64,000 nucleotides of DNA from Escherichia phage EC100: the sequence record NC_105587.1, one strand, 5' to 3'. Both the position numbers and the translations under genes were made by a program. The notes below the pieces were generated by a model. It was not told the origin of the DNA. It saw only the letters and a list, made by a program, of their open reading frames with translations, and did not search any database. The stretch's first letter is position 1. Each line of letters starts with the position of its first letter. This document shows, piece by piece, positions 1-42,777 of the stretch.

Positions 1-269
1 TACATAATAAGTAAACTTTATAGTGTCATTCTAGACAGGACTCGAACCTGTTATCACTTGTGCGGACTTACGAGAACCATTCTTTCACTCGAATCGAACG
101 AGCTTCTGCCCTCGCCAAGCTGGTTTCCCCATCAACCACGCTAGAATGTTTGATTGTTTTCAGTGCAAGAGTCCGAGTCTTGGACACGACCGCTTCGCAA
201 GTACATAGGCAGCTTATCATGAGTCAGCACTTCCGAATTGCTAGCTCCGTGTTCTGCACTGAAATTTTG

Positions 270-617
270 TTAATTTAATAGTAATGTATGATCTACTTCA
301 CCATTAATTGTTCGGCATTCCTCTGGAATTGCTGGTGTAGTCTTATATTCCCACCATTCAGAACCATCATATTCACCACGTTCTAACCAAGTTCCATCAG
401 TAAACCATACGTTACCATAAAGCAATTGTCCACCGAAACCAGAATCATATTTAAAGTCTAGATTATTTAGAAAATCTTCAATATCTTTTTCTGTATAACC
501 TACGGGTAATACCCAAACTTCTTTGTCCCCATAATAACCGAATTCTATTTTAATACACTTAATTTCAGAATTAATATTCTTTAGGGCAAGTAATAATTCT
601 TCTTTAGCATTAATCAT
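270..617 (-). CDS. hypothetical protein (115 aa)
   Basis: ATG-initiated minus-strand ORF directly downstream of tRNA-Lys; no recognisable motif. Confidence 0.4.
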   Translation of the reverse strand: MINAKEELLLALKNINSEIKCIKIEFGYYGDKEVWVLPVGYTEKDIEDFLNNLDFKYDSGFGGQLLYGNVWFTDGTWLERGEYDGSEWWEYKTTPAIPEECRTINGEVDHTLLLN

Positions 618-643
618 AGCATATTTCTCGTGCTAGTTTAGTT

Positions 644-719
644 TGGTACACCCACTAGGACTTGAACCTAGAACCCTCCGCTTAAGAGGCGGTAGCTCTA
701 ACCATTGAGCTATGGATGT
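644..719 (-). tRNA. tRNA-Lys (anticodon CUU)
   Basis: Minus-strand cloverleaf: 7-bp acceptor stem (ACATCCA/TGGGTGT), D-stem GCTC/GAGC, anticodon loop CTCTTAA, T-arm CTAGG-TTCAAGT-CCTAG, encoded 3' CCA. Confidence 0.7.
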
Positions 720-896
720 ATTAAATTACTTTTTCCAGTTCATCAGCTATGGCTTTGATTTTTTCAAAGTTTACATCACTAATAATGATACCTTCCAGTG
801 ATAGAGATATTCTAGCATTTTTCGTAGCAGATTCTTTTATCTGCTCTATATCTTCTGGAGTAAACTCTCTACGTTCCATAGCTAACCTACCTTATT

Positions 897-973
897 TGGC
901 GCGACCGATGGGATTTGAACCCACATTCCCTCCCGTGACAGGGGAGTACCATTACCAAGCCAGCCCCGGTCGC
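897..973 (-). tRNA. tRNA-Asp (anticodon GUC)
   Basis: Perfect 7-bp acceptor stem GCGACCG/CGGTCGC, anticodon stem CTCCC/GGGAG with loop CTGTCAC, T-loop TTCAAAT, encoded CCA. Confidence 0.75.
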
Positions 974-982
974 ATAATTCAT

Positions 983-1168
983 TTACTCAGCTTTGAGTTT
1001 TTCAATAGCTGCATTAAGTTCTTTAAGAAACTCTTTTCGTACATTAAGACGGTTGAGACTTACTAGTATATCATGTTTAAGTTCTTCGATGTATTTCTTC
1101 TCAACTTCAATATTGTTGATAGTGCTATCACGATGAACTTCTAGCTGCGCAATTACATTCTTGGACAT
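983..1168 (-). CDS. hypothetical small coiled-coil protein (61 aa)
   Basis: ATG start preceded by GAGGAA ribosome-binding site; sits between tRNA genes. Confidence 0.4.
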   Translation of the reverse strand: MSKNVIAQLEVHRDSTINNIEVEKKYIEELKHDILVSLNRLNVRKEFLKELNAAIEKLKAE

Positions 1169-1270
1169 GCTTGTTTCCTCAGTTATTAATGAAAATGGTA
1201 TCTGTGGCTGGATTCGATGTCAGCAATGATAGCTGGTTGGCTACCGGTTTACTTAACTCTACACAGAATT

Positions 1271-1353
1271 TGGCGGGCCGTGTAGGATTCGAACCTACGT
1301 TGTCTTTCGACATGGATTAACAGTCCACCGCCAAACCGCTTGGCTAACGACCC
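1271..1353 (-). tRNA. tRNA with anticodon GUU (Asn-type) but a 13-nt variable arm
   Basis: Acceptor GGGTCGT/ACGGCCC, D-stem GCCA/TGGC, anticodon stem GTGGA/TCCAT, loop CTGTTAA, extra arm GTC-GAAA-GAC, T-arm GTAGG-TTCGAAT-CCTAC, CCA. 83 nt. Confidence 0.5.
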
Positions 1354-1505
1354 TGAATTTGTATTGCTGACTAGGATTTTCACCTAGACGGAGTTAGCAC
1401 CGTAGCGTGTAGCGGCATACCTCTCCAAACCGTGCCTCATCTTTCAATTACGGAGACAGTGTTCCTACGCGTGCCTGAATTGATTTAACAATTCTTTCAG
1501 CAAAT

Positions 1506-1581
1506 TGGACGACCGCATGAGATTTGAACTCACATAAAAAGGATTTGCAATCCTTCGCCTAAGCCATTCAGCCAACGGTCG
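1506..1581 (-). tRNA. tRNA-Cys (anticodon GCA)
   Basis: Acceptor CGACCGT/GCGGTCG, anticodon stem AAGGA/TCCTT with loop TTGCAAA, T-arm GTGAG-TTCAAAT-CTCAT, encoded CCA. Confidence 0.7.
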
Positions 1582-1650
1582 GTTTATCTTGTTCTGTCAT
1601 GTTGCTTCTCCAGTTCAATTTATGTAATTATTATACAGAACTTTTGGAAA

Positions 1651-1923
1651 CTAAGCAACTACATTTTTTAAGAATTTGATGCCTTTCTTTTTCTTCTTAT
1701 ATTTCCACGTTAATGGATTCTGTCGATTATGAACGCTTGAGATCTTTGTCTCGTCAAAGTTCTTCAATACCATGTAATCACAAGATAATTGTTTTAATGG
1801 AATGTGATCACCGTCAAAAGCGTATACATAAGGCTGTTGACTAGCACGATAATGATAGACTTTGTTAATTCTACGTTTCAGCAACTTATCCGCGCAGTAA
1901 ATAAAGAAGTTTTCAGGATGCAT
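1651..1923 (-). CDS. hypothetical protein (about 90 aa)
   Basis: Track ORF 1651..1938; internal ATG at 1923 has a GAGGGAG ribosome-binding site, so the start was moved there. Confidence 0.4.
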   Translation of the reverse strand: MHPENFFIYCADKLLKRRINKVYHYRASQQPYVYAFDGDHIPLKQLSCDYMVLKNFDETKISSVHNRQNPLTWKYKKKKKGIKFLKNVVA

Positions 1924-1940
1924 CAGCAGCTCCCTCAATT

Positions 1941-2015
1941 TGGTGCACCCTGTTCGTATCGAACGAACCTCTCAAGCTCTTCAGGCAAGCGCTAATCCAT
2001 CTCAGCTAAAGGTGC
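1941..2015 (-). tRNA. tRNA-like element, anticodon arm not resolvable (possible pseudo-tRNA)
   Basis: Good acceptor stem (GCACCTT/AGGGTGC), T-arm GTTCG-TTCGATA-CGAAC and 3' CCA, but no clean 5-bp anticodon stem could be folded by hand. Confidence 0.3.
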
Positions 2016-2101
2016 AAATTTTGGCAGGGGTAAAGGTATTCGAAACCTTTTCATGGGTTTTGGAGGCCCATTTGCAACCTATGCGTACCCCAATTATTAA
2101 T

Positions 2102-2176
2102 TGGCACACCCAACGAGGATCGAACTCGTGTTCCCACTGTGAAAGAGTGGTGTCCTAACCGCTAGACGATAGGTGC
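2102..2176 (-). tRNA. tRNA-Glu (anticodon UUC)
   Basis: Acceptor GCACCTA/TGGGTGT (two G-U pairs), anticodon stem CCACT/AGTGG with loop CTTTCAC, T-arm ACGAG-TTCGATC-CTCGT, CCA. Confidence 0.65.
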
Positions 2177-2183
2177 ATTAAAT

Positions 2184-2271
2184 TGGTGGGCGTTAATGGA
2201 GTCGAACCACTCGAGTCGCAATGACCAGGGATTTACAATCCCCTCCGCTACCACTTACGGAATAAACGCCC
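2184..2271 (-). tRNA. tRNA-Tyr (anticodon GUA), long variable arm
   Basis: Acceptor GGGCGTT/AACGCCC, anticodon stem GGGGA/TCCCC with loop TTGTAAA, long extra arm, T-loop TTCGACT, CCA. 88 nt. Confidence 0.7.
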
Positions 2272-2352
2272 ATATTTAGAAGTATTCAAATACTAGTTTA
2301 AACACTTTTAAATATGTTTCCAAATTAGATAACTATTATATCAAGTTTTAAG

Positions 2353-2391
2353 GCACTGAGCAAGTAAGATTTTGAAGAACTTGCTCAGTGC
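2353..2391 (-). terminator. stem-loop with 13-bp perfect stem, downstream of 2400..2675
   Basis: GCACTGAGCAAGT ... ACTTGCTCAGTGC inverted repeat; flanking U-tract weak, so possibly a processing or stability element. Confidence 0.4.
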
Positions 2392-2399
2392 TGTATTAG

Positions 2400-2675
2400 T
2401 TAGTCGAACTTAGGAGTGACAGATAAGGAGAACGGAAGTTCAAAAACTTCTTCACCCTCATTACTAACGGTAACTACACGACCTTTAAGTTCAGACATTG
2501 AAATATCAATATCAGCTTTTGCATCTGGAGACATGCCAGCTTCAACACATTTAGCTTTAACTTCCGGAAGGAGTTCTACATCGTAGAAATAAAGCCATTC
2601 AATCTCACCTTCCCAGCCTTCCCAGGATTTACAGATTGCACTTTCAATACCAGTTGCTATAACACGATTTTGCAT
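2400..2675 (-). CDS. hypothetical protein (91 aa)
   Basis: ATG start with GAAGGAG ribosome-binding site; followed by a 13-bp-stem hairpin. Confidence 0.45.
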   Translation of the reverse strand: MQNRVIATGIESAICKSWEGWEGEIEWLYFYDVELLPEVKAKCVEAGMSPDAKADIDISMSELKGRVVTVSNEGEEVFELPFSLSVTPKFD

Positions 2676-2765
2676 TCGTTAACTCCTTCATCAATTTATA
2701 TAACTATTATACCAGAAATTTAAAGCAAAAGGCAAGTACATTTTTAAAAATTCTGTTCGGAGGAG

Positions 2766-2972
2766 CTAAACTCCAGATTCTTCTGCCAAGTCTAGACTAA
2801 TAAGAGTTATAGCCATAATTGCTGCACCGTGTTCTTTTTCTCCGGTGTTTTTAGCAGAGTCTATAATAGTCTTAATCTGTTCGTAATAGCCTTTTACTTC
2901 TTGTTCAATACCTGCCTCGGCTATCATGCCTTTAGTCATGATTCGTTGCATAGTAATTTCACGGTTAGCCAT
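2766..2972 (-). CDS. hypothetical protein (68 aa)
   Basis: ATG-initiated ORF; its start overlaps the stop of a possible unlisted upstream small ORF (about 2965..3132). Confidence 0.4.
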   Translation of the reverse strand: MANREITMQRIMTKGMIAEAGIEQEVKGYYEQIKTIIDSAKNTGEKEHGAAIMAITLISLDLAEESGV

Positions 2973-3161
2973 GTTGTTTCTCCAGCTTCATTTTTAATAG
3001 TTTACAAATGAAATCAACGTCTTCATCTGTACCTAGATCTCTATCTTCAAGGGTTGCCTTGAAATTTTTCGTTAGTTCCATAAGAATAACTTCCCTAGAA
3101 CGACGTGTTGGCGGAGGTGGATGTCTATACATCTTAATTCCTTAACTTGGTAGGGGTTATA

Positions 3162-3845
3162 TCATCTATTTTTCTTAATACTTTTAGGATCTTTCCCTGT
3201 TAGGGACTTATACCTTTTCCTTAATCCAGTATCAGACAATCCTAGTTCTTTGGAGGCACGAATCCAGGAATATTTAGATACCCAGTACTCTATTTGCTCC
3301 ACAGTAATATCTGGATTTATAGTTATCTCTTTAGGAGTACATGATTTACAGTGTGTTGCTCTTGAGCTAATTTCGCAGTGACAAATAGCACACGTATTTA
3401 CAGTCCTTTCTGTATACCTGCCAATATTTTTGCCTGCATGAGTAGGTGTTAGTGCATGGCAATTTGGGCATAGGAAGGCTAAGTTATCCCATTCATTATT
3501 ATAGTGATTTCCATCCTTGTGTTCAAGTTCTAAAGGAATTGGTTTATCTAACCAACTTTCTAAGCCACAACTCTCACATTTATGTGGTTTTAGCCCCTCG
3601 TTAAGAATTTTATTCTTTAGTTTATAGGAAGAAATAGGGCTGCCGTTATATAAATACTCTGTTGCAGACTTATATTTATTATCATACTGCCTATTCGCAG
3701 GAATAACTACTATTCCTAGTTTTCCTAAATATGCTTCCAAAGTGTTCGAGGAGCAGGATAGCATTCTTGCTATCTCTGCTTTAGATTTTCCCTGAGCTAT
3801 CCACTGAGCTATTTCTTCCTTTCTATCTAGTATATCAGTTCTCAT
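3162..3845 (-). CDS. HNH homing endonuclease with N-terminal helix-turn-helix domain
   Basis: HNH motif region HKCESCG...ELEHKDGNHYNNEWDNLAFLCPNCH plus further Cys/His clusters; weak ribosome-binding site; located inside the tRNA island. Confidence 0.7.
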   Translation of the reverse strand: MRTDILDRKEEIAQWIAQGKSKAEIARMLSCSSNTLEAYLGKLGIVVIPANRQYDNKYKSATEYLYNGSPISSYKLKNKILNEGLKPHKCESCGLESWLDKPIPLELEHKDGNHYNNEWDNLAFLCPNCHALTPTHAGKNIGRYTERTVNTCAICHCEISSRATHCKSCTPKEITINPDITVEQIEYWVSKYSWIRASKELGLSDTGLRKRYKSLTGKDPKSIKKNR

Positions 3846-3868
3846 AGTTTATGACTTTATAATTAAGT

Positions 3869-3946
3869 TGGTGGCTCCCCGAGGATTCGAACCTACGTAC
3901 CTTCCGGTTATGAGCCGGGTGCTCATACCATATGAGCTTGAGAACC
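3869..3946 (-). tRNA. tRNA with anticodon CAU (Met or Ile2-type)
   Basis: Acceptor GGTTCTC/GGGAGCC, D-stem GCTC/GAGC, anticodon loop CTCATAA on a CCGG stem, T-loop TTCGAAT, CCA. T-stem pairs only partially. Confidence 0.5.
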
Positions 3947-3952
3947 AAAATC

Positions 3953-4041
3953 TGGCGGAAGAAGTGGGAATCGAACCCACAAGGCTATATTTCAAACCGA
4001 CAGATTAGCAATCTGCTGCAATACCGTTATGCTATTCTTCC
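3953..4041 (-). tRNA. tRNA-Ser (anticodon GCU), long variable arm
   Basis: Perfect acceptor GGAAGAA/TTCTTCC, anticodon stem GCAGA/TCTGT with loop TTGCTAA, long extra arm, T-arm GTGGG-TTCGATT-CCCAC, CCA. Confidence 0.7.
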
Positions 4042-4062
4042 GAATTTATAAGATATATTATA

Positions 4063-4581
4063 TTAGAAATTTAGCTTCATAGCAAGAAAATTTTTCAAGT
4101 TTTCGGTAGACATCTCATCCACATCTACAGGAGAAACAAATCCATTTAATTTTCTAGCAAATTTTTCACCCGCAGGATCGTTGTCCCCGACAGCTACCAA
4201 TTTAAAAGGTAATAATTTCAGTTGCTTTAATAAGGCTTTTCCTGGAGAAGAACCCAACATTGCCAGGGCTGGATAACCAGCGTTATGTAACGCAACTGCC
4301 TTAAATACAGATTCAGCAATCAATACTACTTTTTCATCTCCATTGAGAGTTTCTAGTCCCCATACACACTGTGTAGTAGAATAGGTAAAATATTTAGCTT
4401 CAAAGGGGCACTTACCATGCCCTTTTGGAGCAGAAGGATTATAAGTCTGATAGCCTCTCAACATCCCAGAGAAGTCATACAACGGGACTGTTAGCCATCC
4501 TTCTGGACTTAACCAGCAATGATATTTATCTGTATCAAATCCCCTAGATAAGAGGTGCTGTGTTAGCTCATCAACATTCAT
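4063..4581 (-). CDS. Toprim-domain protein (primase-like catalytic core without zinc ribbon)
   Basis: Toprim signature VVLIAESVFKA (Glu) ... LVAVGDNDPAG (DxD); start moved to the ATG at 4581, which has a GAGAGAGGAA ribosome-binding site. Confidence 0.5.
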   Translation of the reverse strand: MNVDELTQHLLSRGFDTDKYHCWLSPEGWLTVPLYDFSGMLRGYQTYNPSAPKGHGKCPFEAKYFTYSTTQCVWGLETLNGDEKVVLIAESVFKAVALHNAGYPALAMLGSSPGKALLKQLKLLPFKLVAVGDNDPAGEKFARKLNGFVSPVDVDEMSTENLKNFLAMKLNF

Positions 4582-4756
4582 ATTTGGTTCCTCTCTCAAA
4601 TTTATAGATATATTATACAGAGAATTTAGCATTCAAGCAATCAAATTTTTTAACTTTTTAGAGGAAAATCATAGGGCACTTAAGGGTAGCAGATAAGTGG
4701 TGAGGACCAAAATTTGTGACCCCACTAAAAATCCGGGGGCAATTTTTAAAGACCCC

Positions 4757-4785
4757 TTGACATTTTCGCTGGGGTAGTGTAAAGT
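4757..4785 (+). promoter_or_regulatory. sigma70-type promoter (TTGACA, 17 bp, TAAAGT) for the plus-strand low-complexity module
   Basis: TTGACATTTTCGC -35 core shared with the element at 32904; 60 nt upstream of the GGAGG ribosome-binding site. Confidence 0.45.
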
Positions 4786-4848
4786 ATATGTTATGGATGA
4801 GTGATCAAAGAGACACACATTTTCTGTATACTAGGAGGTGTCAAAAAA

Positions 4849-5840
4849 TGACAGAAGAAGTAGCTAAGAGTCCTGAGACCGTCGCTAGCGTTGCGGCAGA
4901 ACTGCACCGTCACGAGGAATCAGATAAGAAAAAGTGGGAGAAGGTCAGAGCCTACGAAGAAAAACATCGTGAACACGATGATGAAGACGATGAAGATGAC
5001 GATGATGAACATTGTCATAAATATGGAAAACATAAAATGCAAGAACCAGTAAACGTATTTACTAATGGCTTCCCTGGCCTACTAGGTGGTTACCCAGCAA
5101 ACGTAGGTGCTTTCGGTGGTGAAGGTATGGGACTATTCGGAGCTATCCTAATCGGCGCTCTATTAACAGGCGGATTCGGTGGTTTCGGTGGATTCGGTGG
5201 ACGTGGTGTTGTTGGTGAAGGTACCGCAGTTGATGCAGTACTTCAGAACCAAGATACCGCTAGTATTCTAGCAGCTATCAACACTACTCGTACAGAAGCT
5301 AACCAGGGTACCGGAGCTGTTTTAAGCGCAGTTAACAATGGTTTTAGCCAGACATCCCAAAACCAGAGCCGTGATACTCAGTCTGTATTAACTACGATCT
5401 ATGGTACAGGTGCTAATCTGTCTAATCAGATCTGCCAGGAAACCCGCAACGTTATTCAGGGTCAGTTCGATCTTTCTCGCCAGATTGATCAATCTTTCGC
5501 AGCTAACCAGATAGCTCGTGCACAAGATAAATTTGATTCTGCACAGATAGCTTTCCAGCAGACTTTACAAACTAATAACCAGTTTGCCGCTGTTCAGGCT
5601 CAGATGTGTGCTAACCAGAACTCTCTGGAACGTCAGATCGCTGAATGTTGCTGTGAACTTCAGACTGCGATCGCTGGTGTAACTACTGCGCGTATCCAGG
5701 ATGAGTTAGATGCATGTCGCCTACGTGAAGCAATCGCTGCGGGTAGCGGTGCTAACGGTCAGGTAATTAATCAAATCGCTTTAAGTCTTGGTGCTATCAC
5801 TCAGACTCTGGCTGGTCTGCAGGCTAAACTGCCGGCTTAA
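4849..5840 (+). CDS. low-complexity protein: acidic N-terminus, Gly-zipper hydrophobic segment, Q/N/T-rich Cys-containing C-terminus
   Basis: GGAGG ribosome-binding site 9 nt upstream of the ATG at 4849; acidic run DDEDDEDDDDE, GLFGAILIGALLTGGFGGFGGFGG, roughly 200 aa Q/N/A/T-rich tail with CCC. Confidence 0.55.
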
Positions 5841-5861
5841 TATTAAGGGGAGGAGCCCATT

Positions 5862-6275
5862 ATGAGTAAATATGGTTTTGTAAATAACGGACTTAATCAA
5901 AGTATGGGCTCCCAGCAGCCCATTCCGGGTCTGGATAACCCCTACTTACAACAGTTGCAACAGCGTTTAGCAGAAGCGCAACAGATGCAGCAACAACTCC
6001 AGCAAAACCCTGGAAGTGTGAGTCCTATGCAAATGATGCAGCAAATGAGCGGGCAGTCGCAAATGCCTCAACAAATGCAGCAACAGATGCCGCAGCAAGT
6101 TCAGCAACAAACCCAACAACCGCAGGTTTCTGCGGAAGGACAGGCAGTACTAGCCCTTTTCGAAGACTTCGCAAAGACAGAGGATGGGAAACAGCTTGTA
6201 TCACTTATGGGTAAGTTTAATAGCTTCTGCCAAAGCCAAATTGCAAAAGCTCAAAATAGCGGTAATAACTCCTAA
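5862..6275 (+). CDS. glutamine-rich protein (137 aa)
   Basis: GGAGG ribosome-binding site; QQLQQRLAEAQQMQQQLQQ...QQMQQQMPQQVQQQTQQPQ; codon usage of highly expressed genes. Confidence 0.55.
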   Translation: MSKYGFVNNGLNQSMGSQQPIPGLDNPYLQQLQQRLAEAQQMQQQLQQNPGSVSPMQMMQQMSGQSQMPQQMQQQMPQQVQQQTQQPQVSAEGQAVLALFEDFAKTEDGKQLVSLMGKFNSFCQSQIAKAQNSGNNS

Positions 6276-6284
6276 GGAGGGATT

Positions 6285-6479
6285 ATGTGTTGCAGAAAAT
6301 CTGTTTCGTGCTGCCCAATGCCTGTAGCACGTTGTTGCTCTCCAGCAATGTTTACGCAAATACCGGCGTTCAATCCGTTTGCCTTTAAGCCTACTCTTAT
6401 CCTGCCCCCTAGAGTAGATTTTCAGTCAAGATTGGCCTCCCGTATGGGTGGTTGCTGTAATAAGAGTATATGGTTCTGA
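6285..6479 (+). CDS. cysteine-rich small protein with four vicinal CC pairs (64 aa)
   Basis: AGGAGG ribosome-binding site; MCCRKSVSCCPMPVARCCSP...GGCCNK; followed by an intrinsic terminator. Confidence 0.45.
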   Translation: MCCRKSVSCCPMPVARCCSPAMFTQIPAFNPFAFKPTLILPPRVDFQSRLASRMGGCCNKSIWF

Positions 6480-6495
6480 AGAACCAAACAATAAA

Positions 6496-6529
6496 GCCCC
6501 TAGTCGAAAGACTTAGGGGCTTTTCTTTT
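6496..6529 (+). terminator. intrinsic terminator ending the plus-strand low-complexity module
   Basis: GCCCCTAGTC-GAAA-GACTTAGGGGC hairpin followed by TTTTCTTTT. Confidence 0.75.
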
Positions 6530-6540
6530 ATCTTAAATAC

Positions 6541-6574
6541 AGAAAAGCCCTGCGCTCTCCAGGAAACGCAGGGC
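6541..6574 (-). terminator. intrinsic terminator after the SPFH gene
   Basis: GCCCTGCG ... CGCAGGGC hairpin with a U-tract on the minus strand; convergent with the 6496 terminator. Confidence 0.65.
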
Positions 6575-6599
6575 TTACTTCAGATGTTACATGCGGGTA

Positions 6600-7547
6600 T
6601 TATTTATTACGCATATCCATAATCATTTGGCCATCATAGCCAGTGCCAACCACAGTCTGCGGTACACCACCCTGATACTTCTGAGCACGAATCATTTCAA
6701 CTTCCAGTTGCTTCCAGCGAATCATCTCAGGAGTAATGGTACGTTGCAGTGCGGCGTTAGCTTCAGCTTCTTTCTTAGCTGCGTACAGTTTAGCATCTGC
6801 ATCACGTTCATTAGCAATAGCTTGGTTGTTGCGAGCTTCACGATCTGCTTCTGCTTGTTTAACTTTTTGCTGTGCTTCCTGTTCAACACGAGCTAATTCA
6901 GCTTTAGCAGCATTAACCTGTTCTTCACGAACTTTGGTATTCTGTACCTGTTCCATGATTACCGGTGGCAAAGTAATATCCTGAAGGAACACCTGCTTAA
7001 CTGTGTAACCATATGGGCGTGCATACTCTTCAACTTCCTGTTGAATTGCAGTTTGCAATTGAGCCTGAATTTTAGCATCAAACAAATCTTGTGCTTTAGG
7101 CACAGACTTACCAAACTCACGAATAGTAGACAATAATTTTTCAGTTACATATTTGTCTAACGCTTGATCCTGAGTACCTGCATTAATACGGTTAATCGGT
7201 GCCTTAGAACCATCAAATTGCAACATAACAGTCAAGTCAACAGTGGATTTAAACTTATCCTGACTAGGAACCTGAAGTTTATCTAATTTTACAGCAATAT
7301 CTTTTGTACTAAAAGTATCGAAAGATGCAAACGGGTTTACAAGATGGAAACCAGGTAATACTGGGTTAGGATCTACTTTACCCAGAAATGTTTGGGTTTT
7401 AACCGTACCATCAGAAACAATAGTATATGAATTAAAAGCTAGGATTAAACCTGCTAAACCAACTACAGCACCAATACCCCAACGTTTAATAGTACGAATT
7501 ACTTTCTGCTCAGAAGTCAGTTCTTTCATATTTTTAGTATTAAACAT
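6600..7547 (-). CDS. SPFH/band-7 (HflC/prohibitin-like) membrane protein
   Basis: N-terminal transmembrane helix (WGIGAVVGLAGLILAF), SPFH-like core, C-terminal Ala/Glu/Gln-rich coiled coil; ATG with AGGA ribosome-binding site. Confidence 0.65.
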   Translation of the reverse strand: MFNTKNMKELTSEQKVIRTIKRWGIGAVVGLAGLILAFNSYTIVSDGTVKTQTFLGKVDPNPVLPGFHLVNPFASFDTFSTKDIAVKLDKLQVPSQDKFKSTVDLTVMLQFDGSKAPINRINAGTQDQALDKYVTEKLLSTIREFGKSVPKAQDLFDAKIQAQLQTAIQQEVEEYARPYGYTVKQVFLQDITLPPVIMEQVQNTKVREEQVNAAKAELARVEQEAQQKVKQAEADREARNNQAIANERDADAKLYAAKKEAEANAALQRTITPEMIRWKQLEVEMIRAQKYQGGVPQTVVGTGYDGQMIMDMRNK

Positions 7548-7581
7548 ATATTTCCTTTGTTTTAGTTACAGTTAATAAAGT

Positions 7582-7656
7582 TGGCCGAGGTGACAGGATT
7601 CGAACCTGCATAAAGGAATTTAGAAGACTCCTGCCTCTCCCTTAGACTACACCCCG
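7582..7656 (-). tRNA. tRNA-Arg (anticodon UCU)
   Basis: Acceptor CGGGGTG/CACCTCG, anticodon stem GGAGT/ATTCC with loop CTTCTAA, T-arm GCAGG-TTCGAAT-CCTGT, CCA. Confidence 0.7.
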
Positions 7657-8157
7657 TTTAAGTATTTTTAAGAACTCTCGTAAAAACTCTTAAAAATACA
7701 GACGATACCGGGAGAGTCATAAGTCTCACTCATTAAGTATTTCAAGACAAAATACAGTAACGTCTATTATTTTCCAGTTTAAGTCAAGGTGACTTAGTGG
7801 TTATGTCCTGCGGTATATTGAGGACTCGGTTAGGTTAGGGTCATGACTCCCCACCTTTTTGCTGCTACTCAACAGGAGTTATCGCGAATTACCTGTGCTA
7901 TTGTGCACCATTAGTGGCATCTCTCATGCCAGCATTTCCCACTTTATGTATAGCTTGAAAAACTACTCCGATATGGAGGAAAAACTTCACTATCTAGAAT
8001 ACCTTCTAAAGTTCTTCTTTAGCCTGGACATAGTTAAATCGTAATAAAACTATTCAGCAGACTGGTTGGTTAGTCTGGAACCAACTACCGCGTGGTTTAG
8101 GCAGTGCGCAACTAACCTCGGAAGCTTTTACGTTAAAAGCATCAGTTATCCAGTTCT

Positions 8158-8229: not shown

Positions 8230-8305
8230 AGTGTTACTACATAAGTGATTTCCACACCCCACTATTTATAAATTAGATAGAAATTACTCTCTAATTTATG
8301 AATAT

Positions 8306-8334
8306 ATTATATAGAATTTATAAGCATTTAGCAA
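8306..8334 (-). promoter_or_regulatory. T5 early-class promoter (TTGCTA, 17 bp, TATAAT)
   Basis: Minus-strand TTGCTA-17-TATAAT with the conserved CATAAATT downstream box. Confidence 0.6.
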
Positions 8335-25101: not shown

Positions 25102-25530
25102 ATGTTCAATAATGTATTCTCTAAAGAAGCTAACCCAATATTGGTTAATTTTTGGCGTACTCTTCCAGACAACCTGTACAATGAGGCTATTAATGCTCTG
25201 AAAATATGGTGTGAGAATAATGAAATCTCCTTTGCTTTTAAAGGTGAGATTGAAGAAGCTCCCTGTATTGGTTTAATTGTGCAGGTAGAGGATGGCTTTG
25301 AAGAGATTGTCGGCTGGAAAGAGTTAGATGAAATGGGCTTGGTTTTTGCGTTAAACTATAAGCTGTTTATGCCTAATAAGCACCGTATTGTTGTTAACTA
25401 TAAAACCAGTGAATCTCCGGGCTTTCAAGTTAATGAACATTACGGTTGGTCTTACTCACCGGAAGAAGTAAATGATGGTATACAAAAACTTCGTCGTTTT
25501 GGTTATCAAATTCCGGGTTTAACCGCCTAA
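25102..25530 (+). CDS. hypothetical protein, paralog A of a tandem pair
   Basis: Shares SFAF..PCIG, W.EL..MGL..ALN..LF.P and W.Y.P...L.R.G...PGL blocks with the next ORF. Confidence 0.5.
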   Translation: MFNNVFSKEANPILVNFWRTLPDNLYNEAINALKIWCENNEISFAFKGEIEEAPCIGLIVQVEDGFEEIVGWKELDEMGLVFALNYKLFMPNKHRIVVNYKTSESPGFQVNEHYGWSYSPEEVNDGIQKLRRFGYQIPGLTA

Positions 25531-29340: not shown

Positions 29341-29557
29341 AAAATGGGAAACAAGGAAGTTTCCAGTAAAAGAACGTAAAGTTCCTGTTTATGATACTTC
29401 GGAAAAGCTATGTAGGGTGGTACCACATAGATTAGCTGGTATCCCTAACATATCCGAGTGGTTACTTAAACAACGGAGGACTAACGTATCTCTTCGCATA
29501 GGGTTTGAGTTAGATAAAGTATATGCTGAACTTTCTTCTTTGCTCAAGGAATCGTAA
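29315..29557 (+). CDS. hypothetical protein (about 80 aa)
   Basis: Overlaps the 3' end of the helicase-like gene; basic N-terminus. Confidence 0.35.
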   Translation: MLEMTVKNKKWETRKFPVKERKVPVYDTSEKLCRVVPHRLAGIPNISEWLLKQRRTNVSLRIGFELDKVYAELSSLLKES

Positions 29558-29565
29558 AAATTTAT

Positions 29566-29594
29566 TTGCTTTCAGGAAAATTTTTCTGTATAAT
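29566..29594 (+). promoter_or_regulatory. promoter matching phage T5 PN25
   Basis: TTTATTTGCTTTCAGGAAAATTTTTCTGTATAATAGATTCATAAATTTGAGAGAGGAG matches the PN25 sequence as I remember it, including the downstream ATGGCTGGTTCTCGC. Confidence 0.8.
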
Positions 29595-29625
29595 AGATTC
29601 ATAAATTTGAGAGAGGAGTTTAAAT

Positions 29626-30330
29626 ATGGCTGGTTCTCGCAGAAAGAAACATATCCATGAAATCCCGGATGAAGTCTTTAAAAAAGTTATAGAGCATCTG
29701 GAGAATGGTGGTACTAAGAAAGCAGCATGTGAAATGCTCGGCGTATCATCCAATCCAACTATGGAAAGGATGATTGAAGAATGGCAAGACCGCCAGATTC
29801 AAGTTGCCGAAATGAAGAAAAAGAAACGTGGCACACTTATTGAAGGCATAGAGTTAGCCAACGTTATTGAGCAGTATTTATCTGGTGATTCTTTTGAAGA
29901 AATTGCCGATCGTAATTATCGCTCTGTAGCAATGGTTAAATCTGTTCTGGAACGATATGGTGCTCTACTTCGTTTTAACGATATTGTAGATCCATTGAAT
30001 CCTCCAATTATTCCTGATGATGCTGTAGCAGAAGAATTTGCAGTTGGTGAGCTTGTTTGGGTTCCTGGATACCAGTGTATCGGTGAAATCAAAAAAGCAA
30101 TGGATAATCCTGTTGGTTGTTACCGTGTTTGGCTTCTATCAGAAGGCAAACAACAGAACGTTCATTATATGAATTACGAGCTGGCTTCTGTTAAACATCT
30201 GGAAAAGTTAGGAGTAGACGTAAAATCTTTAGGATATAAGTGGACTCGTGAAGAAATTATTACGTTGATTAACGAAGCTGTTAAGGCCGCCTTGAAACTT
30301 GATAAAGAAAAAGGAAAACGCCGTGAGTAA
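29626..30330 (+). CDS. helix-turn-helix DNA-binding protein, first gene of the PN25-type transcription unit
   Basis: Immediately downstream of a promoter matching T5 PN25 as I remember it; GAGAGAGGAG ribosome-binding site; N-terminal helix-turn-helix (TKKAACEMLGVSSNPTMERM). Confidence 0.6.
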   Translation: MAGSRRKKHIHEIPDEVFKKVIEHLENGGTKKAACEMLGVSSNPTMERMIEEWQDRQIQVAEMKKKKRGTLIEGIELANVIEQYLSGDSFEEIADRNYRSVAMVKSVLERYGALLRFNDIVDPLNPPIIPDDAVAEEFAVGELVWVPGYQCIGEIKKAMDNPVGCYRVWLLSEGKQQNVHYMNYELASVKHLEKLGVDVKSLGYKWTREEIITLINEAVKAALKLDKEKGKRRE

Positions 30331-39667: not shown

Positions 39668-40157
39668 TTTCAAATTGCCCGTCTATGCGTTACGGGCGTT
39701 TGTATCAATTGAGCAAGAAGGTGATTATTCCGTAATTACAACAAGATATAATAAATATGTGCTAGATAACAGGAAGTTGCCTGGCACGTTTTCTCAACGT
39801 AGGCTTATTCTATTTGAGAAACGGAAAGAATTACCGTACAAGCTCTATCCTATTAGAGGTAGAATATCAATGTTGTCCCAATTAGTTGGGTCAAAGCGTA
39901 GCCAATTTATAGATTCTGATGGAAATCTTATTAATTGGAAGAAAACTACGTTCTATGATGTTGTTACCTCTAAAGTTTTGCATTCAGCTAGAATTTATAA
40001 CGGAAAATACCAATGCTATGTAGCTAAAGTTCCATATCCATTTGTATTATCCTATGTTCCAGCGTATATAAGCTATATTCTGGTAAATAATAGCCCTGTT
40101 ATTTATCAAGTCCATCAAGAGGAGCCTGAAATTCCTAGACTTAGAATAAAATTATGA
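39660..40157 (+). CDS. hypothetical protein (165 aa)
   Basis: GTG start overlapping the polymerase stop; no motif recognised. Confidence 0.4.
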   Translation: MLDFKLPVYALRAFVSIEQEGDYSVITTRYNKYVLDNRKLPGTFSQRRLILFEKRKELPYKLYPIRGRISMLSQLVGSKRSQFIDSDGNLINWKKTTFYDVVTSKVLHSARIYNGKYQCYVAKVPYPFVLSYVPAYISYILVNNSPVIYQVHQEEPEIPRLRIKL

Positions 40158-41506
40158 AGGTTGTTATATCTAATAAAGCCTATTTCAAGCCCGATGATGA
40201 ACTTTGGGATTATTGTAGTAAGCAAACCACTTATCACATTGAGACAATGACTAGTAAATACCCTATTATGTATAAGAATAGTGGTGTTGTTGCTAAAGAG
40301 ATTAAGTGGATTCCTATCACGCGTCTAGATTTACTAGATGCTAAAGGAGTAAAATACGAATTAGTCGATAAACGCACATTAGCCCCAGTAGATATACCAA
40401 AACCTAAGTTTAAGCTGCGTGAAGAAGACCAGCTCCCAATATATGAAGAGTGCGATGATACCTGTATTATTAATGGTAAGCCTGGATTTGGCAAAACTAT
40501 CCTAGCCCTGGCACTTGCGTATAAATTTGGCCAGAAAACTTTGGTAATTTGTACCAACACATCTATTCGTGAAATGTGGGCGGCAGAAGTTCGTAAATGG
40601 TTTGGGTTCGAACCGGGCATTATAGGTTCTGGGAAATACAATATTGATCCACCAATTGTAGTCAGTAATATTCAAACAGTAAATAAACATGCGAATAATC
40701 TTTCTAAAGTATTCGGTACTGTTATAGTTGACGAAGTTCACCATTGTGTGGCTACAACTTTCACTAACTTCCTAGAAATATCATGTGCTCGCTATAAGAT
40801 TGGACTATCTGGAACATTAAAACGTAAAGATGGTCTACAAGTTATGTTCAAAGACTTCTTTGGATATAAGATCTTCAGCCCGCCTGTTAATAATACTGTT
40901 GCACCTACAATCCATAGGTACTCTGTACCTGTTGAGTTATCAGGAAATCAGAATGTGCCATGGGCATTACGTGCTAATGATGTGTACAACCATCCTGAAT
41001 ATCGAGAGACTATTATAAACTTAGCACACTTATACGTGAATATGGGGCATAAAGTACTCATTGTAAGTGACAGAACAGAGTTAATCCAAACAGTACTAGA
41101 AGCTCTCGCACAGCGTGGTGTTACAACATATGAAATTATAGGGGCAACTCACTTAGATGACCGATTAAAAATTCAGGAAGATATAGCAAAAGGTGGACCT
41201 TGTGTACTTGCAGCAGCTCAAAGTATCTTCTCTGAAGGTATTTCCCTTAATGAGTTGTCTTGTTTAATAATGGGAAGTCTCATTAATAATGAATCTCTCA
41301 TCGAACAGCTTGCAGGACGTGTTCAACGTATTGTCGATGGTAAACTAGACCCTATTGTTGTAGATCTAATTATGAAAGGTGGCACTGGACTAAGACAGGC
41401 TTCTGGACGTATGGCAGTATATCGTAACAACGGGTGGAAAACTATTACCATGACCCCTGAGAAAGCAGTTCAATTAGCTAAAATTGCATTTGGCAACAGC
41501 TCATAA
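40154..41506 (+). CDS. SF2 DEAH-type helicase (T5 D10-like)
   Basis: Walker A GKPGFGKT, motif II IVDEVHH; 450 aa; ATGA overlap with the upstream stop. Confidence 0.8.
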   Translation: MKVVISNKAYFKPDDELWDYCSKQTTYHIETMTSKYPIMYKNSGVVAKEIKWIPITRLDLLDAKGVKYELVDKRTLAPVDIPKPKFKLREEDQLPIYEECDDTCIINGKPGFGKTILALALAYKFGQKTLVICTNTSIREMWAAEVRKWFGFEPGIIGSGKYNIDPPIVVSNIQTVNKHANNLSKVFGTVIVDEVHHCVATTFTNFLEISCARYKIGLSGTLKRKDGLQVMFKDFFGYKIFSPPVNNTVAPTIHRYSVPVELSGNQNVPWALRANDVYNHPEYRETIINLAHLYVNMGHKVLIVSDRTELIQTVLEALAQRGVTTYEIIGATHLDDRLKIQEDIAKGGPCVLAAAQSIFSEGISLNELSCLIMGSLINNESLIEQLAGRVQRIVDGKLDPIVVDLIMKGGTGLRQASGRMAVYRNNGWKTITMTPEKAVQLAKIAFGNSS

Positions 41507-41518
41507 ATGATGTATAAT
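41490..41518 (+). promoter_or_regulatory. sigma70 promoter (TTGGCA, 17 bp, TATAAT) overlapping the helicase 3' end
   Basis: First of two tandem promoter-plus-leader copies (TATAATATATACATAAATT). Confidence 0.5.
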
Positions 41519-41588
41519 ATATACATAAATTTGAGAGAGAAAGTTTCGGATTGATAAGAAAGTCCGAAGCAGAAAAATAAAAATTTTA

Positions 41589-41618
41589 GTTGCTAAATTC
41601 TCTCGAAATCTAGTATAA
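41589..41618 (+). promoter_or_regulatory. T5 early-class promoter (TTGCTA, 18 bp, TATAAT), second tandem copy
   Basis: Followed by ATATATACATAAATTCGAGGAG; no ATG at canonical spacing from the GAGGAG site. Confidence 0.5.
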
Positions 41619-41726
41619 TATATACATAAATTCGAGGAGAAAATAAAAATTAAATTCTTCGATTATGAAAAGCTATACTTACTAGCTAGAGGAAATTCCG
41701 ACCTAATTATTAAGCTATTCAAAAGA

Positions 41727-42011
41727 ATGCTTACAGAGCCTGATGCTCACCAATTATTGGTCGGTCCCTCATTCATTTTGAATGAATCAACTATTGTTGA
41801 TAATCCAAATAAATTGTCTAATAGACAACTGGCAGAATATCTAGGAATTTTAAGTCTACGAAATTATGCCGAATACAAGTTTACAAACGATCCTAGTTTG
41901 GACATACAATATGTTCCAGTATGGATACCACGTTTAGTAATCGACACTAACCCACTAATCGCAATTAACAAATCGAAATTAATCTTTAAAGAGGAAATAA
42001 AATATGGCTAA
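41727..42011 (+). CDS. hypothetical protein (94 aa), start uncertain
   Basis: The frame is open from 41613 but the first ATG (41727) lacks a ribosome-binding site; an orphan GAGGAG site lies 90 nt upstream. Confidence 0.3.
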   Translation: MLTEPDAHQLLVGPSFILNESTIVDNPNKLSNRQLAEYLGILSLRNYAEYKFTNDPSLDIQYVPVWIPRLVIDTNPLIAINKSKLIFKEEIKYG

Positions 42012-42777
42012 GTCTTGGGGCGAAACTACTGGCGGTTCTAACGATAAAATCGAATTCCTGAAGTTCAACAACGGTATCACTCGTGTTCGTATCGTTTCTG
42101 GTGTTCTTCCACGTTATGTCTATTGGCTGACCAATAAAGAGGGTAACGTAGCTCCTTTCGAATGTCTCCGTTTTAACCGTGACAAAGAGAGCTTTGTTCG
42201 TGGTAAAGCTGATCCGGTTCATGAGATGGGCTTCTTCGAGAAAGAGCTGGATAAAGACGGTAATCGTGTTCCGCTGAAACCGAAGAAAAACTATATCGCT
42301 TTTGTTATCGACCGTTCTGATAACAAACTGAAAGTAATGGAAGTCAAGGCTACTATTCTGAAAGGCATCCAGTCTATCATGAAGCAGCTGAGCCTGGCAA
42401 CTCCGTTTGATATTGATATTTCTATCGAGAAAAAAGGTAAAGGTTTCGATACTGAGTATGATGTACAGCAGATTGCTGCTATGCAGTTCCAGATTAAGCT
42501 GCAAGATCCTAACAGTGCAGAATCTAAGCAATATGCTGCAGATGTAGATCTGATCGGTGAAGCTATGTGTGATGAAGATGGCGACATCATTAAGTTCGAA
42601 AAAGTTCCTTCTCTGGAACAAACCTATCCGGTTCCTACCTATGAAGAGCAGAAAGAAGCAATTCAAGCCTTCATGGAGGGTCGTGAGAATAAAGATGATG
42701 ATGCCAAATCTGGTAATAGCAATGCAGGCTCCCAGAAAGGTATTGACACAGAAGCTGCAAGCGATCTGGATGACTAA
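42004..42777 (+). CDS. abundant replication-module protein with acidic C-terminal tail (possible gp2.5-like ssDNA-binding protein)
   Basis: GAGGAA ribosome-binding site; optimal codons; C-terminus DTEAASDLDD; own terminator. Function is inferred, not motif-proven. Confidence 0.5.
   Translation: MAKSWGETTGGSNDKIEFLKFNNGITRVRIVSGVLPRYVYWLTNKEGNVAPFECLRFNRDKESFVRGKADPVHEMGFFEKELDKDGNRVPLKPKKNYIAFVIDRSDNKLKVMEVKATILKGIQSIMKQLSLATPFDIDISIEKKGKGFDTEYDVQQIAAMQFQIKLQDPNSAESKQYAADVDLIGEAMCDEDGDIIKFEKVPSLEQTYPVPTYEEQKEAIQAFMEGRENKDDDAKSGNSNAGSQKGIDTEAASDLDD

Follow-up and report, generated by a model that had tools for sequence, protein, structure and literature searches.

The 64,000-nucleotide (nt) stretch of Escherichia phage EC100 analyzed here (NC_105587.1; hereafter the window) is, judging from its sequence, that of a T5-like phage (Tequintavirus), and the locus under study is the intergenic control segment that runs from the D10 helicase gene to the gene block of D11, which encodes a single-strand DNA-binding protein (SSB). 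In this segment, two tandem promoters of the PN25 type precede a small gene that most probably starts at an AUU codon (41649–41651, + strand) and encodes 120 amino acids (aa), so that the ATG at 41727–41729 (+), which is the annotated start, would be an internal Met27. The original prediction for this locus had described tandem duplicated promoter-leader units followed by an orphan ribosome-binding site, and had offered a non-AUG start, a leader peptide or attenuator, or a short RNA as possible explanations; the comparative evidence strongly supports the first of these options.

The Shine-Dalgarno (SD) motif GAGGAG (41634–41639, +) is followed, nine bases on, by the ATT at 41649, in frame with the ATG at 41727. 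The duplex predicted between this motif and the anti-SD sequence (-8.9 kcal/mol) ends 8 nt 5' of the AUU, within the 5–10 nt taken as appropriate spacing, and is about as strong as that of the gene driven by PN25 (-8.6 kcal/mol), while the value obtained before ATG 41727 was merely -0.9 kcal/mol, which is effectively no SD at all. As predicted, GAGGAG has no ATG at canonical spacing, and neither ATG, GTG nor TTG was found between it and ATG 41727. The frame of the open reading frame (ORF) containing this ATG had been thought to open at 41613; it actually opens at 41619, after a TAA (41616–41618) located inside the -10 box of the second promoter. The in-frame candidates comprise ATA 41643, ATT 41649 and two adjacent ATT codons at 41706 and 41709, as the earlier list of ATA and ATT candidates implied, except that the ATA, which lies 3 nt after the SD and was rejected as too close, is replaced by ACA in T5 and in the majority of relatives. 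Nor did the description of the site as orphan stand, since 9 nt downstream of it an in-frame AUU takes the Met1 position of the protein family. Translation from ATT 41649 reads IKFFDYEKLYLLARGNSDLIIKLFKR up to Met27. When the window was searched for other combinations of an SD with a near-cognate start, 41649 was the one convincing case; an ATT candidate at 25218/25221 (-) was discarded because it is antisense to annotated genes.

The position of the AUU is best appreciated by comparison with relatives, as it aligns base-for-base with the ATG of Met1 in Epseptimavirus. In Salmonella phage fuchur, a member of that genus with ~90% DNA identity, the coding sequence (CDS) is annotated as 120 aa from this ATG and begins MKFFDYERIYLLARGNSDLIVKLFNRM, and in Klebsiella phages of the genus Sugarlandvirus (67% DNA identity) it comprises 117 aa and begins MLFYDYEKIYILARGNSS, with an equivalent N-terminus. 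Fourteen of the 26 N-terminal positions are invariant among the window, Epseptimavirus and Sugarlandvirus, and the N-terminal pattern M-x-F-F-D-Y-E was found in 18 out of 20 database homologues, down to 41% identity. Moreover, the 120-aa translation from 41649 fits the whole of the phrog_4258 profile (120 positions; members of 116–122 aa), residues 2–120 aligning on profile positions 2–120 (E = 6.2e-61), i.e. over its full length. Met27, in turn, is conserved in the closer genera and is replaced by Leu or Ile in distant homologues.

Sequence comparison indicates that the codons between the ATT and ATG 41727 are under protein-coding constraint. Both the ATT and the open frame were present in every T5-type locus retrieved (22 from IMG/VR and 4 from metagenomes, the metagenome scan having added only 7 loci overall), and likewise in T5, EC122 and contig L048. 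A 61-mer containing the ATT was found as an exact match in 174 of 213 T5-type phage records, and its ATG version in none of the 213. In a tblastn search with the 120-aa protein, 903 of the 905 matching records covered at least 80% of the query; about 206 T5-type records matched, every sampled T5-type row being a single piece that spans residues 1–120. The best T5-type identity was 99.2%, corresponding to a Met-to-Ile mismatch at position 1, so that no T5-type match has Met at this position. Within codons 2–26 of the T5-type loci there were eight synonymous variable sites (41682, 41690, 41699, 41702, 41703, 41711, 41715 and 41717), a single non-synonymous one (41661, D5N, seen in one contig) and no indels; relatives L019 and L025 do differ by single-base indels in the A-run that separates the SD from the ATT, and none was found in the 78 nt downstream. 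Under neutrality, 40% of transitions and 12% of transversions would be synonymous in codons 2–26, compared with seven of eight transitions and the sole transversion observed (p ~1e-3, own calculation). At the level of codons 1–30, the DNA differed from the consensus in 112 of the 213 records, and 180 of 213 showed no amino acid change beyond position 1. The ratio of non-synonymous to synonymous substitution rates (dN/dS) relative to Epseptimavirus was 0.046 for codons 2–26 and 0.099 for the rest of the gene. An AlphaFold model built on the family alignment had a mean predicted local distance difference test score (pLDDT) of 93.7, and placed in residues 1–29 a beta strand (2–4) and two helices (6–12 and 17–29) with pLDDT values of 96–97; according to this model, a product starting at Met27 would lose about a fifth of the fold, namely the strand and the two helices.

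Synonymous divergence between T5-type and Epseptimavirus sequences was not even along the gene: 11 of 15.8 synonymous sites had changed in codons 2–26 (window 41652–41726 versus 811–885 of the Epseptimavirus locus L006) and 15.5 of 61.8 in codons 27–120, an excess that could reflect a recombination boundary or selection on the 5' sequence of the mRNA.

The organization of the start region varied among genera and is out of the ordinary in nearly all of them. In Epseptimavirus, a normal leader with a weak SD (-2.9 kcal/mol) precedes the ATG. In most other Demerecviridae genera, Sugarlandvirus, Serratia phage Slocum and several metagenomic lineages among them, the proximal promoter has its -10 box 0–4 nt 5' of the ATG, so that its transcripts would start inside the gene and be unable to encode the protein, and only weak SD-like motifs (GGTG or AGGA, -2.8 to -4.0 kcal/mol) were found, located in the promoter spacer; the promoter embedded in the start region can be seen at positions 930–960 of locus L007 and at about 670–705 of L049, L050, L051, L053 and L055. 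A TTG, one base past TATAAT, occupies the Met1 position in Enterobacter phage KKP_3711 (L058, PP579741, 429–545) and in two metagenomic relatives (L047, 100–165, and L052, 695–705). The called starts in KKP_3711 (85 aa) and L047 (101 aa) are downstream ATG codons, despite upstream codons that encode the conserved LFFDYEKIY, and look like further mis-calls in the same gene family.

An ATT at the Met1 position was found in one further lineage, L046 (a 66-kb Logan contig from SRR23015428; 1393–1425), with ~55% protein identity, where AAGGAG lies 7 nt upstream of the ATT (-8.7 kcal/mol) and the called protein is also one of 94 aa from Met27; the nearest relatives of L046 have TTG or ATG with weak SDs (-2.8 to -4.0 kcal/mol). 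A leader combined with a strong SD occurs in two lineages only, Tequintavirus (-8.9 kcal/mol) and L046 (-8.7 kcal/mol), and exactly these have ATT. In a neighbour-joining tree based on residues 27 onward, the two ATT lineages were separate, each nested among ATG or TTG relatives, and therefore ATT arose twice under the most parsimonious reconstruction. The pairing of a strong SD with a weak start codon is what would be expected if AUU were a working but weak start, and we infer that initiation would actually take place at AUU 41649. In addition, a stem pairing the SD (41632–41639) with codons 3–5 (41655–41662) and leaving the AUU in the loop was considered and rejected as shuffle-like (-6.1 kcal/mol, z = -1.2); it is unformed in the Epseptimavirus fold, although for L046 the prediction includes a stem that encloses the SD.

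The T5 N25 promoter is widely used, and the two repeat units upstream of the gene are the known tandem sigma-70 early promoters P31A and P31B, of the PN25 type and already on record. The repeat search returned one direct repeat (41505–41535 versus 41606–41636, 27 of 31 positions identical, spacing 101 nt), which bears out the two repeated units described after the helicase gene. The 19-nt core TATAATATATACATAAATT is the same in both copies; with 3 or fewer mismatches allowed, the window contains 13 occurrences of it versus 0.18 expected (0 of 100 shuffles reached 13), always on the same strand as the flanking genes. All 13 units share a layout consisting of an A-rich block, a TTGCT-like -35, a 17–18 nt spacer and TATAAT, followed by six bases, ATAAATT and a purine-rich GAGAG/GGAG stretch; in 11 of them a start codon lies 5–10 nt 3' of the purine-rich motif, and in 11 of 13 an SD and a start codon are found within ~25 nt. 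The unit at 29589 (+) is letter-for-letter the published PN25 sequence, which was taken for comparison from doi 10.1101/2022.08.30.505822; positions 29544–29640 (+) hold an exact copy of the T5 N25 promoter including its transcribed sequence, followed by ATGGCTGGTTCTCGC. P31A and P31B are the closest pair within this dispersed 13-copy family, which includes PN25; calling them duplicated thus went too far. The notion of tandem promoter-leader units agrees with the T5 record AY543070, where features P31A and P31B stand at the positions of the two units, and AY692264 labels the second (P31B) as a putative promoter.

The promoter scan matched P31A at 11 of 12 consensus positions with a 17-nt spacer and P31B at 10 of 12 with an 18-nt spacer, and both carry the block TATAAT-N6-ATAAATT-GAGAG together with an A-rich block 5' of the -35 that characterizes the PN25 family. 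In P31A, the -35 TTGGCA (41490–41495, +) lies within the last codons of D10 and inside the AY543070 P31A feature, and the -10 TATAAT (41513–41518, +) was identified by both the promoter scan and the core alignment. The start is predicted at A41525 (+), in register with PN25, and opens a PN25-like initial transcribed sequence, ATAAATTTGAGAGAGAAA (41525–41542, +), with no start codon after it. An A/T-rich, UP-element-like block (41571–41589, +) precedes the P31B -35; its GAAAGTCCGAAGCAGAAAAATAAAAA is invariant in the alignment and is the most conserved intergenic stretch across genera, and comparable A-rich blocks were found upstream of all 13 units and in other genera as well. The P31B -35 TTGCTA (41590–41595, +) was found by the promoter scan and lies within the features of AY543070 and AY692264, and the -10 TATAAT (41614–41619, +) includes the in-frame TAA that closes the upstream frame. 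Its predicted leader, again in register with PN25, comprises the 23 nt AUAAAUUCGAGGAGAAAAUAAAA (41626–41648, +). With +1 positions set from what we take to be the N25 start, transcription would begin near 41525 and 41626. The T5 promoters of AY543070 occupy the same positions with essentially the same sequence (TTGCT-type -35, 17–18 nt spacer, TATAAT, A-rich block and ATAAATT(T/C)GAG), with no substantive difference from those in the window, which hold the same element in a close T5 relative. Nearly every genus examined has tandem units here, two or three in number. The literature searched yielded no experimental mapping of either P31A or P31B.

Several observations weigh against a start at AUU 41649. 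The seven T5-type records inspected (EC122, T5_ev212, PHB06, two records of T5, SelmaRatti and DT571/2) all annotate ATG 41727 and a product of 94 aa; Tequintavirus diversity is low (~2%), so that the synonymous to non-synonymous count within the genus rests on nine sites, and the T5-type records are not independent events. Furthermore, the GAGAG-rich motif is part of the transcribed consensus of the promoter family and is present in P31A without a start codon, and hence the motif alone is no proof of a ribosome-binding role. The change from ATG to ATT could accordingly be seen as the loss of a start, with only the 94-aa form produced from ATG 41727 and the upstream codons left as an untranslated relic, as would fit the use of that ATG in every T5-type annotation inspected, the presence of the 94-aa form in protein databases (177 contigs) and the retention of Met27 in the closer genera. 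We regard this as improbable, since the frame would need to stay open in ~206 genomes, with 8:1 synonymous variation and a dN/dS of 0.046 versus Epseptimavirus; translation solely from ATG 41727 is hard to square with such purifying selection on 26 upstream codons. Besides, an SD is missing before this ATG (-0.9 kcal/mol), whereas the one before the ATT became stronger in the T5 lineage (-8.9 versus -2.9 kcal/mol in Epseptimavirus), the truncation would drop a strand and two helices confidently modelled by AlphaFold, and Met27 is Leu or Ile in distant homologues. An equally improbable arrangement is the use of both starts, AUU for a minor full-length product and AUG 41727 for a shorter form, possibly weighted by promoter. 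The two codons share a frame and each is conserved in Markadamsvirinae and in Sugarlandvirus, and elsewhere the proximal promoter abuts the start codon, its transcripts thus lacking Met1; against this stand the absence of an SD at ATG 41727, the lack of family-wide conservation of Met27, and the location of P31A and P31B, both upstream of the AUU, so that both transcripts carry it. Finally, GAGGAG might belong to the initial transcribed sequence only and influence promoter escape, as in PN25, without any translational role. The transcribed sequence of PN25, ATAAATTTGAGAGAGGAG, has the same motif, and PMC12464699 documents effects of the N25 transcribed sequence on escape. To this proposal we would assign hardly any probability: a start codon follows the motif at 5–10 nt in 11 of 13 units, implying that promoter and translation roles coexist, the family Met1 position lies 9 nt downstream of GAGGAG, and the motif is stronger exactly in the two ATT lineages.

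The P31A unit and the hairpin downstream of it might, on the other hand, form a separate device, either a short RNA, a leader-peptide attenuator or a terminator of the helicase transcript. The SD-like GAGAGAG of P31A has no start codon after it, and the hairpin that had been noticed between the two copies is indeed present in the P31A leader (41543–41570, +), with a 10-bp stem (41543–41552 with 41561–41570) and an 8-nt loop. For the 65-nt segment around it, which runs from the P31A start to just 5' of the P31B -35, the folding energy is -14.2 kcal/mol (z = -5.5), the 141-nt P31A leader folds at z = -4.0 with respect to shuffles, and part of the hairpin is conserved across genera. It is identical in Epseptimavirus and re-formed in Klebsiella phages, where the left arm differs and the loop measures 3 nt. 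Only in Markadamsvirinae is it strong; the Klebsiella, Slocum and L053 loci have a weaker version and L046, L052, L055 and KKP_3711 have none, and it was consequently rejected as a family-wide structure. The part conserved across genera corresponds to its right arm plus the A-rich block GAAAGTCCGAAGCAGAAAAATAAAAA, i.e. the upstream region of P31B. A terminator scan of 40800–42400 yielded 0 sites, and the hairpin is followed by CAGAAAAATAAAAA instead of a U-tract, so that the attenuator option, and the terminator reading in general, were rejected. The short-RNA option fared no better, with nothing to end a short transcript and, in a search of Rfam 15 covariance models, a sole match to SprD on the other strand (18.9 bits versus a gathering threshold of 100, E = 0.21). 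As to the leader-peptide option, the small ORFs after P31A (TTG 41551, 9 codons; ATT 41550, 22 codons) were discarded as not conserved as coding, being absent or non-synonymously diverged in relatives; in the 22-codon frame, nearly all differences between T5 and Epseptimavirus are non-synonymous (alignment read by eye). Terminator, leader peptide and Rfam RNA are therefore not supported at this locus, and a separate device of any of these kinds seems very improbable. The hairpin may possibly serve as a 5' stabiliser, a processing site or a protein-binding site, or be plain upstream promoter DNA. Two further candidates were rejected in this region: a 6-codon ORF at ATG 41665, which lacks an SD, lies outside the frame and has TAC in place of its ATG in Epseptimavirus, and a long-range pairing of 41530–41538 with 41599–41607 in the P31A leader, absent in Epseptimavirus (by eye).

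If the gene does start at AUU 41649, both promoters would read rightward through it and then D11, P31A with a leader of ~124 nt that spans the stable hairpin and all of P31B, and P31B with one of 23 nt. On both transcripts GAGGAG would recruit 30S subunits to the AUU, and the combination of AUU with a maximal SD would keep the yield of the 120-aa protein low despite two very strong promoters, the main cargo of these abundant transcripts being D11 and the downstream recombination genes. Throttling of dosage may thus be the purpose of the AUU; it counts against this idea that the pattern of SD and start codon behind it comes from just two ATT lineages.

Initiation factor IF3 discriminates against AUU starts; in infC, which encodes it, IF3 represses its own AUU start, the codon serving as sensor in this autoregulation, and the AUU of pcnB, encoding poly(A) polymerase I, limits the expression of a protein needed in small amounts. 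In Escherichia coli reporters, AUU output is ~1–2% of that of AUG, and infC and pcnB are the sole confirmed AUU starts in that species (doi 10.1101/063800); AUU mRNAs are poor competitors against AUG mRNAs (PMC5499595). Like the phage gene, infC is a conserved gene with an AUU after an SD and with orthologues that have canonical starts, and pcnB has an AUU and a start codon that varies among its orthologues (doi 10.1101/063800). In contrast to infC, there is no reason to suppose that the phage protein acts on initiation; pcnB is, by analogy, the closest model for the proposed mechanism, although it is a host gene and does not lie behind tandem strong promoters. A more ambitious view, which we consider doubtful, would have selection across the family keep translation from the start region very low and perhaps conditional, the AUU being IF3-dependent and a phage counterpart of infC. 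Most Demerecviridae genera would then encode the protein only on read-through transcripts from the distal promoter, and the lineages with a leader and a strong SD would each have taken AUU independently; synthesis of a replication-module protein would in that case depend on the state of translation in the infected cell.

T5 serves as a model phage, and deposited genomes of its relatives number in the hundreds. Provided that AUU is the true start, a conserved early gene is annotated 26 residues (22%) too short in T5-type genomes, the T5 reference records among them, and structure prediction, homology searches or functional work on the 94-aa form would deal with a protein that lacks one strand and two helices. 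A collection of ~15 billion proteins contains the 94-aa form on 177 contigs and lacks the exact 120-aa T5-type sequence, whether with Met or with Ile first. The NCBI third-party annotation HIA6146469.1, on a T5-like contig from an E. coli assembly, is a 125-aa 'partial' protein beginning EEKTKIKFFDYE; evidently, the automated pipeline saw homology run upstream and found no start. Gene callers restricted to ATG, GTG and TTG would systematically miss starts of this kind, and TTG-start relatives such as Enterobacter phage KKP_3711 would be mis-called likewise. In the literature searched, no mention was found of an AUU or ATT start in T5 or of a function for T5.125. The promoters being already annotated, what the AUU start would provide is a new addition to the AUU-initiated genes and a correction of annotation; a naturally fixed AUU start with a co-varying SD would join a very short list (infC and pcnB).

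With regard to the context of the locus, the D10 helicase gene (40154–41506) lies upstream of the intergenic region, and the CDS as re-defined here would extend over 41649–42011 (+), as a homologue of T5.125 / 'D10-3'' belonging to phrog_4258. The small ORF as annotated (94 aa from ATG 41727, +; T5.125, T5p123 or 'D10-3'') overlaps the start of D11 (42004–42777, +; phrog_1607, E = 8e-106), whose ATG overlaps the 3' end of the 120-aa CDS by 8 nt and which carries its own SD (-6.0 kcal/mol). The small gene was found between the helicase and SSB genes in all loci examined. In some relatives, genes for HNH or homing endonucleases are inserted at differing points near the locus, namely 3' of D11 in PHB06 (L003, 3415–3930) and L048 (2588–3103), and between the helicase gene and the small gene in several Epseptimavirus genomes (matches H71–H78).

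A 1.5-kb query at the locus was 100% identical to Escherichia phage EC122 (ON185583) and to three sister isolates, and matched ~200 other Tequintavirus genomes at 95–99%; phage T5 records showed 98.7% identity over a 621-base query. T5-type sequence (96–99% identity) was also found in OR847785, OR848168 and MG065692, labelled as Listeria phage or Campylobacter phage C13, which are probably mislabelled or contaminant assemblies. Elsewhere in the window, positions 1–8000 (-) hold nine tRNA genes (Lys, Asp, Asn, Cys, Phe, Glu, Tyr, Ser and Arg) interspersed with PN25-type units, as is expected for a T5-like phage. One of the 13 units, at 8230–8311 (-), has a transcribed sequence (…ATAAATTAGAGAGTAATTTCTATCTAATTTATAAATAGTGGGGTGTGG) with no start codon within 45 nt, and the nearest tRNA gene downstream of it is that for Arg (7582–7656), ~640 nt away.

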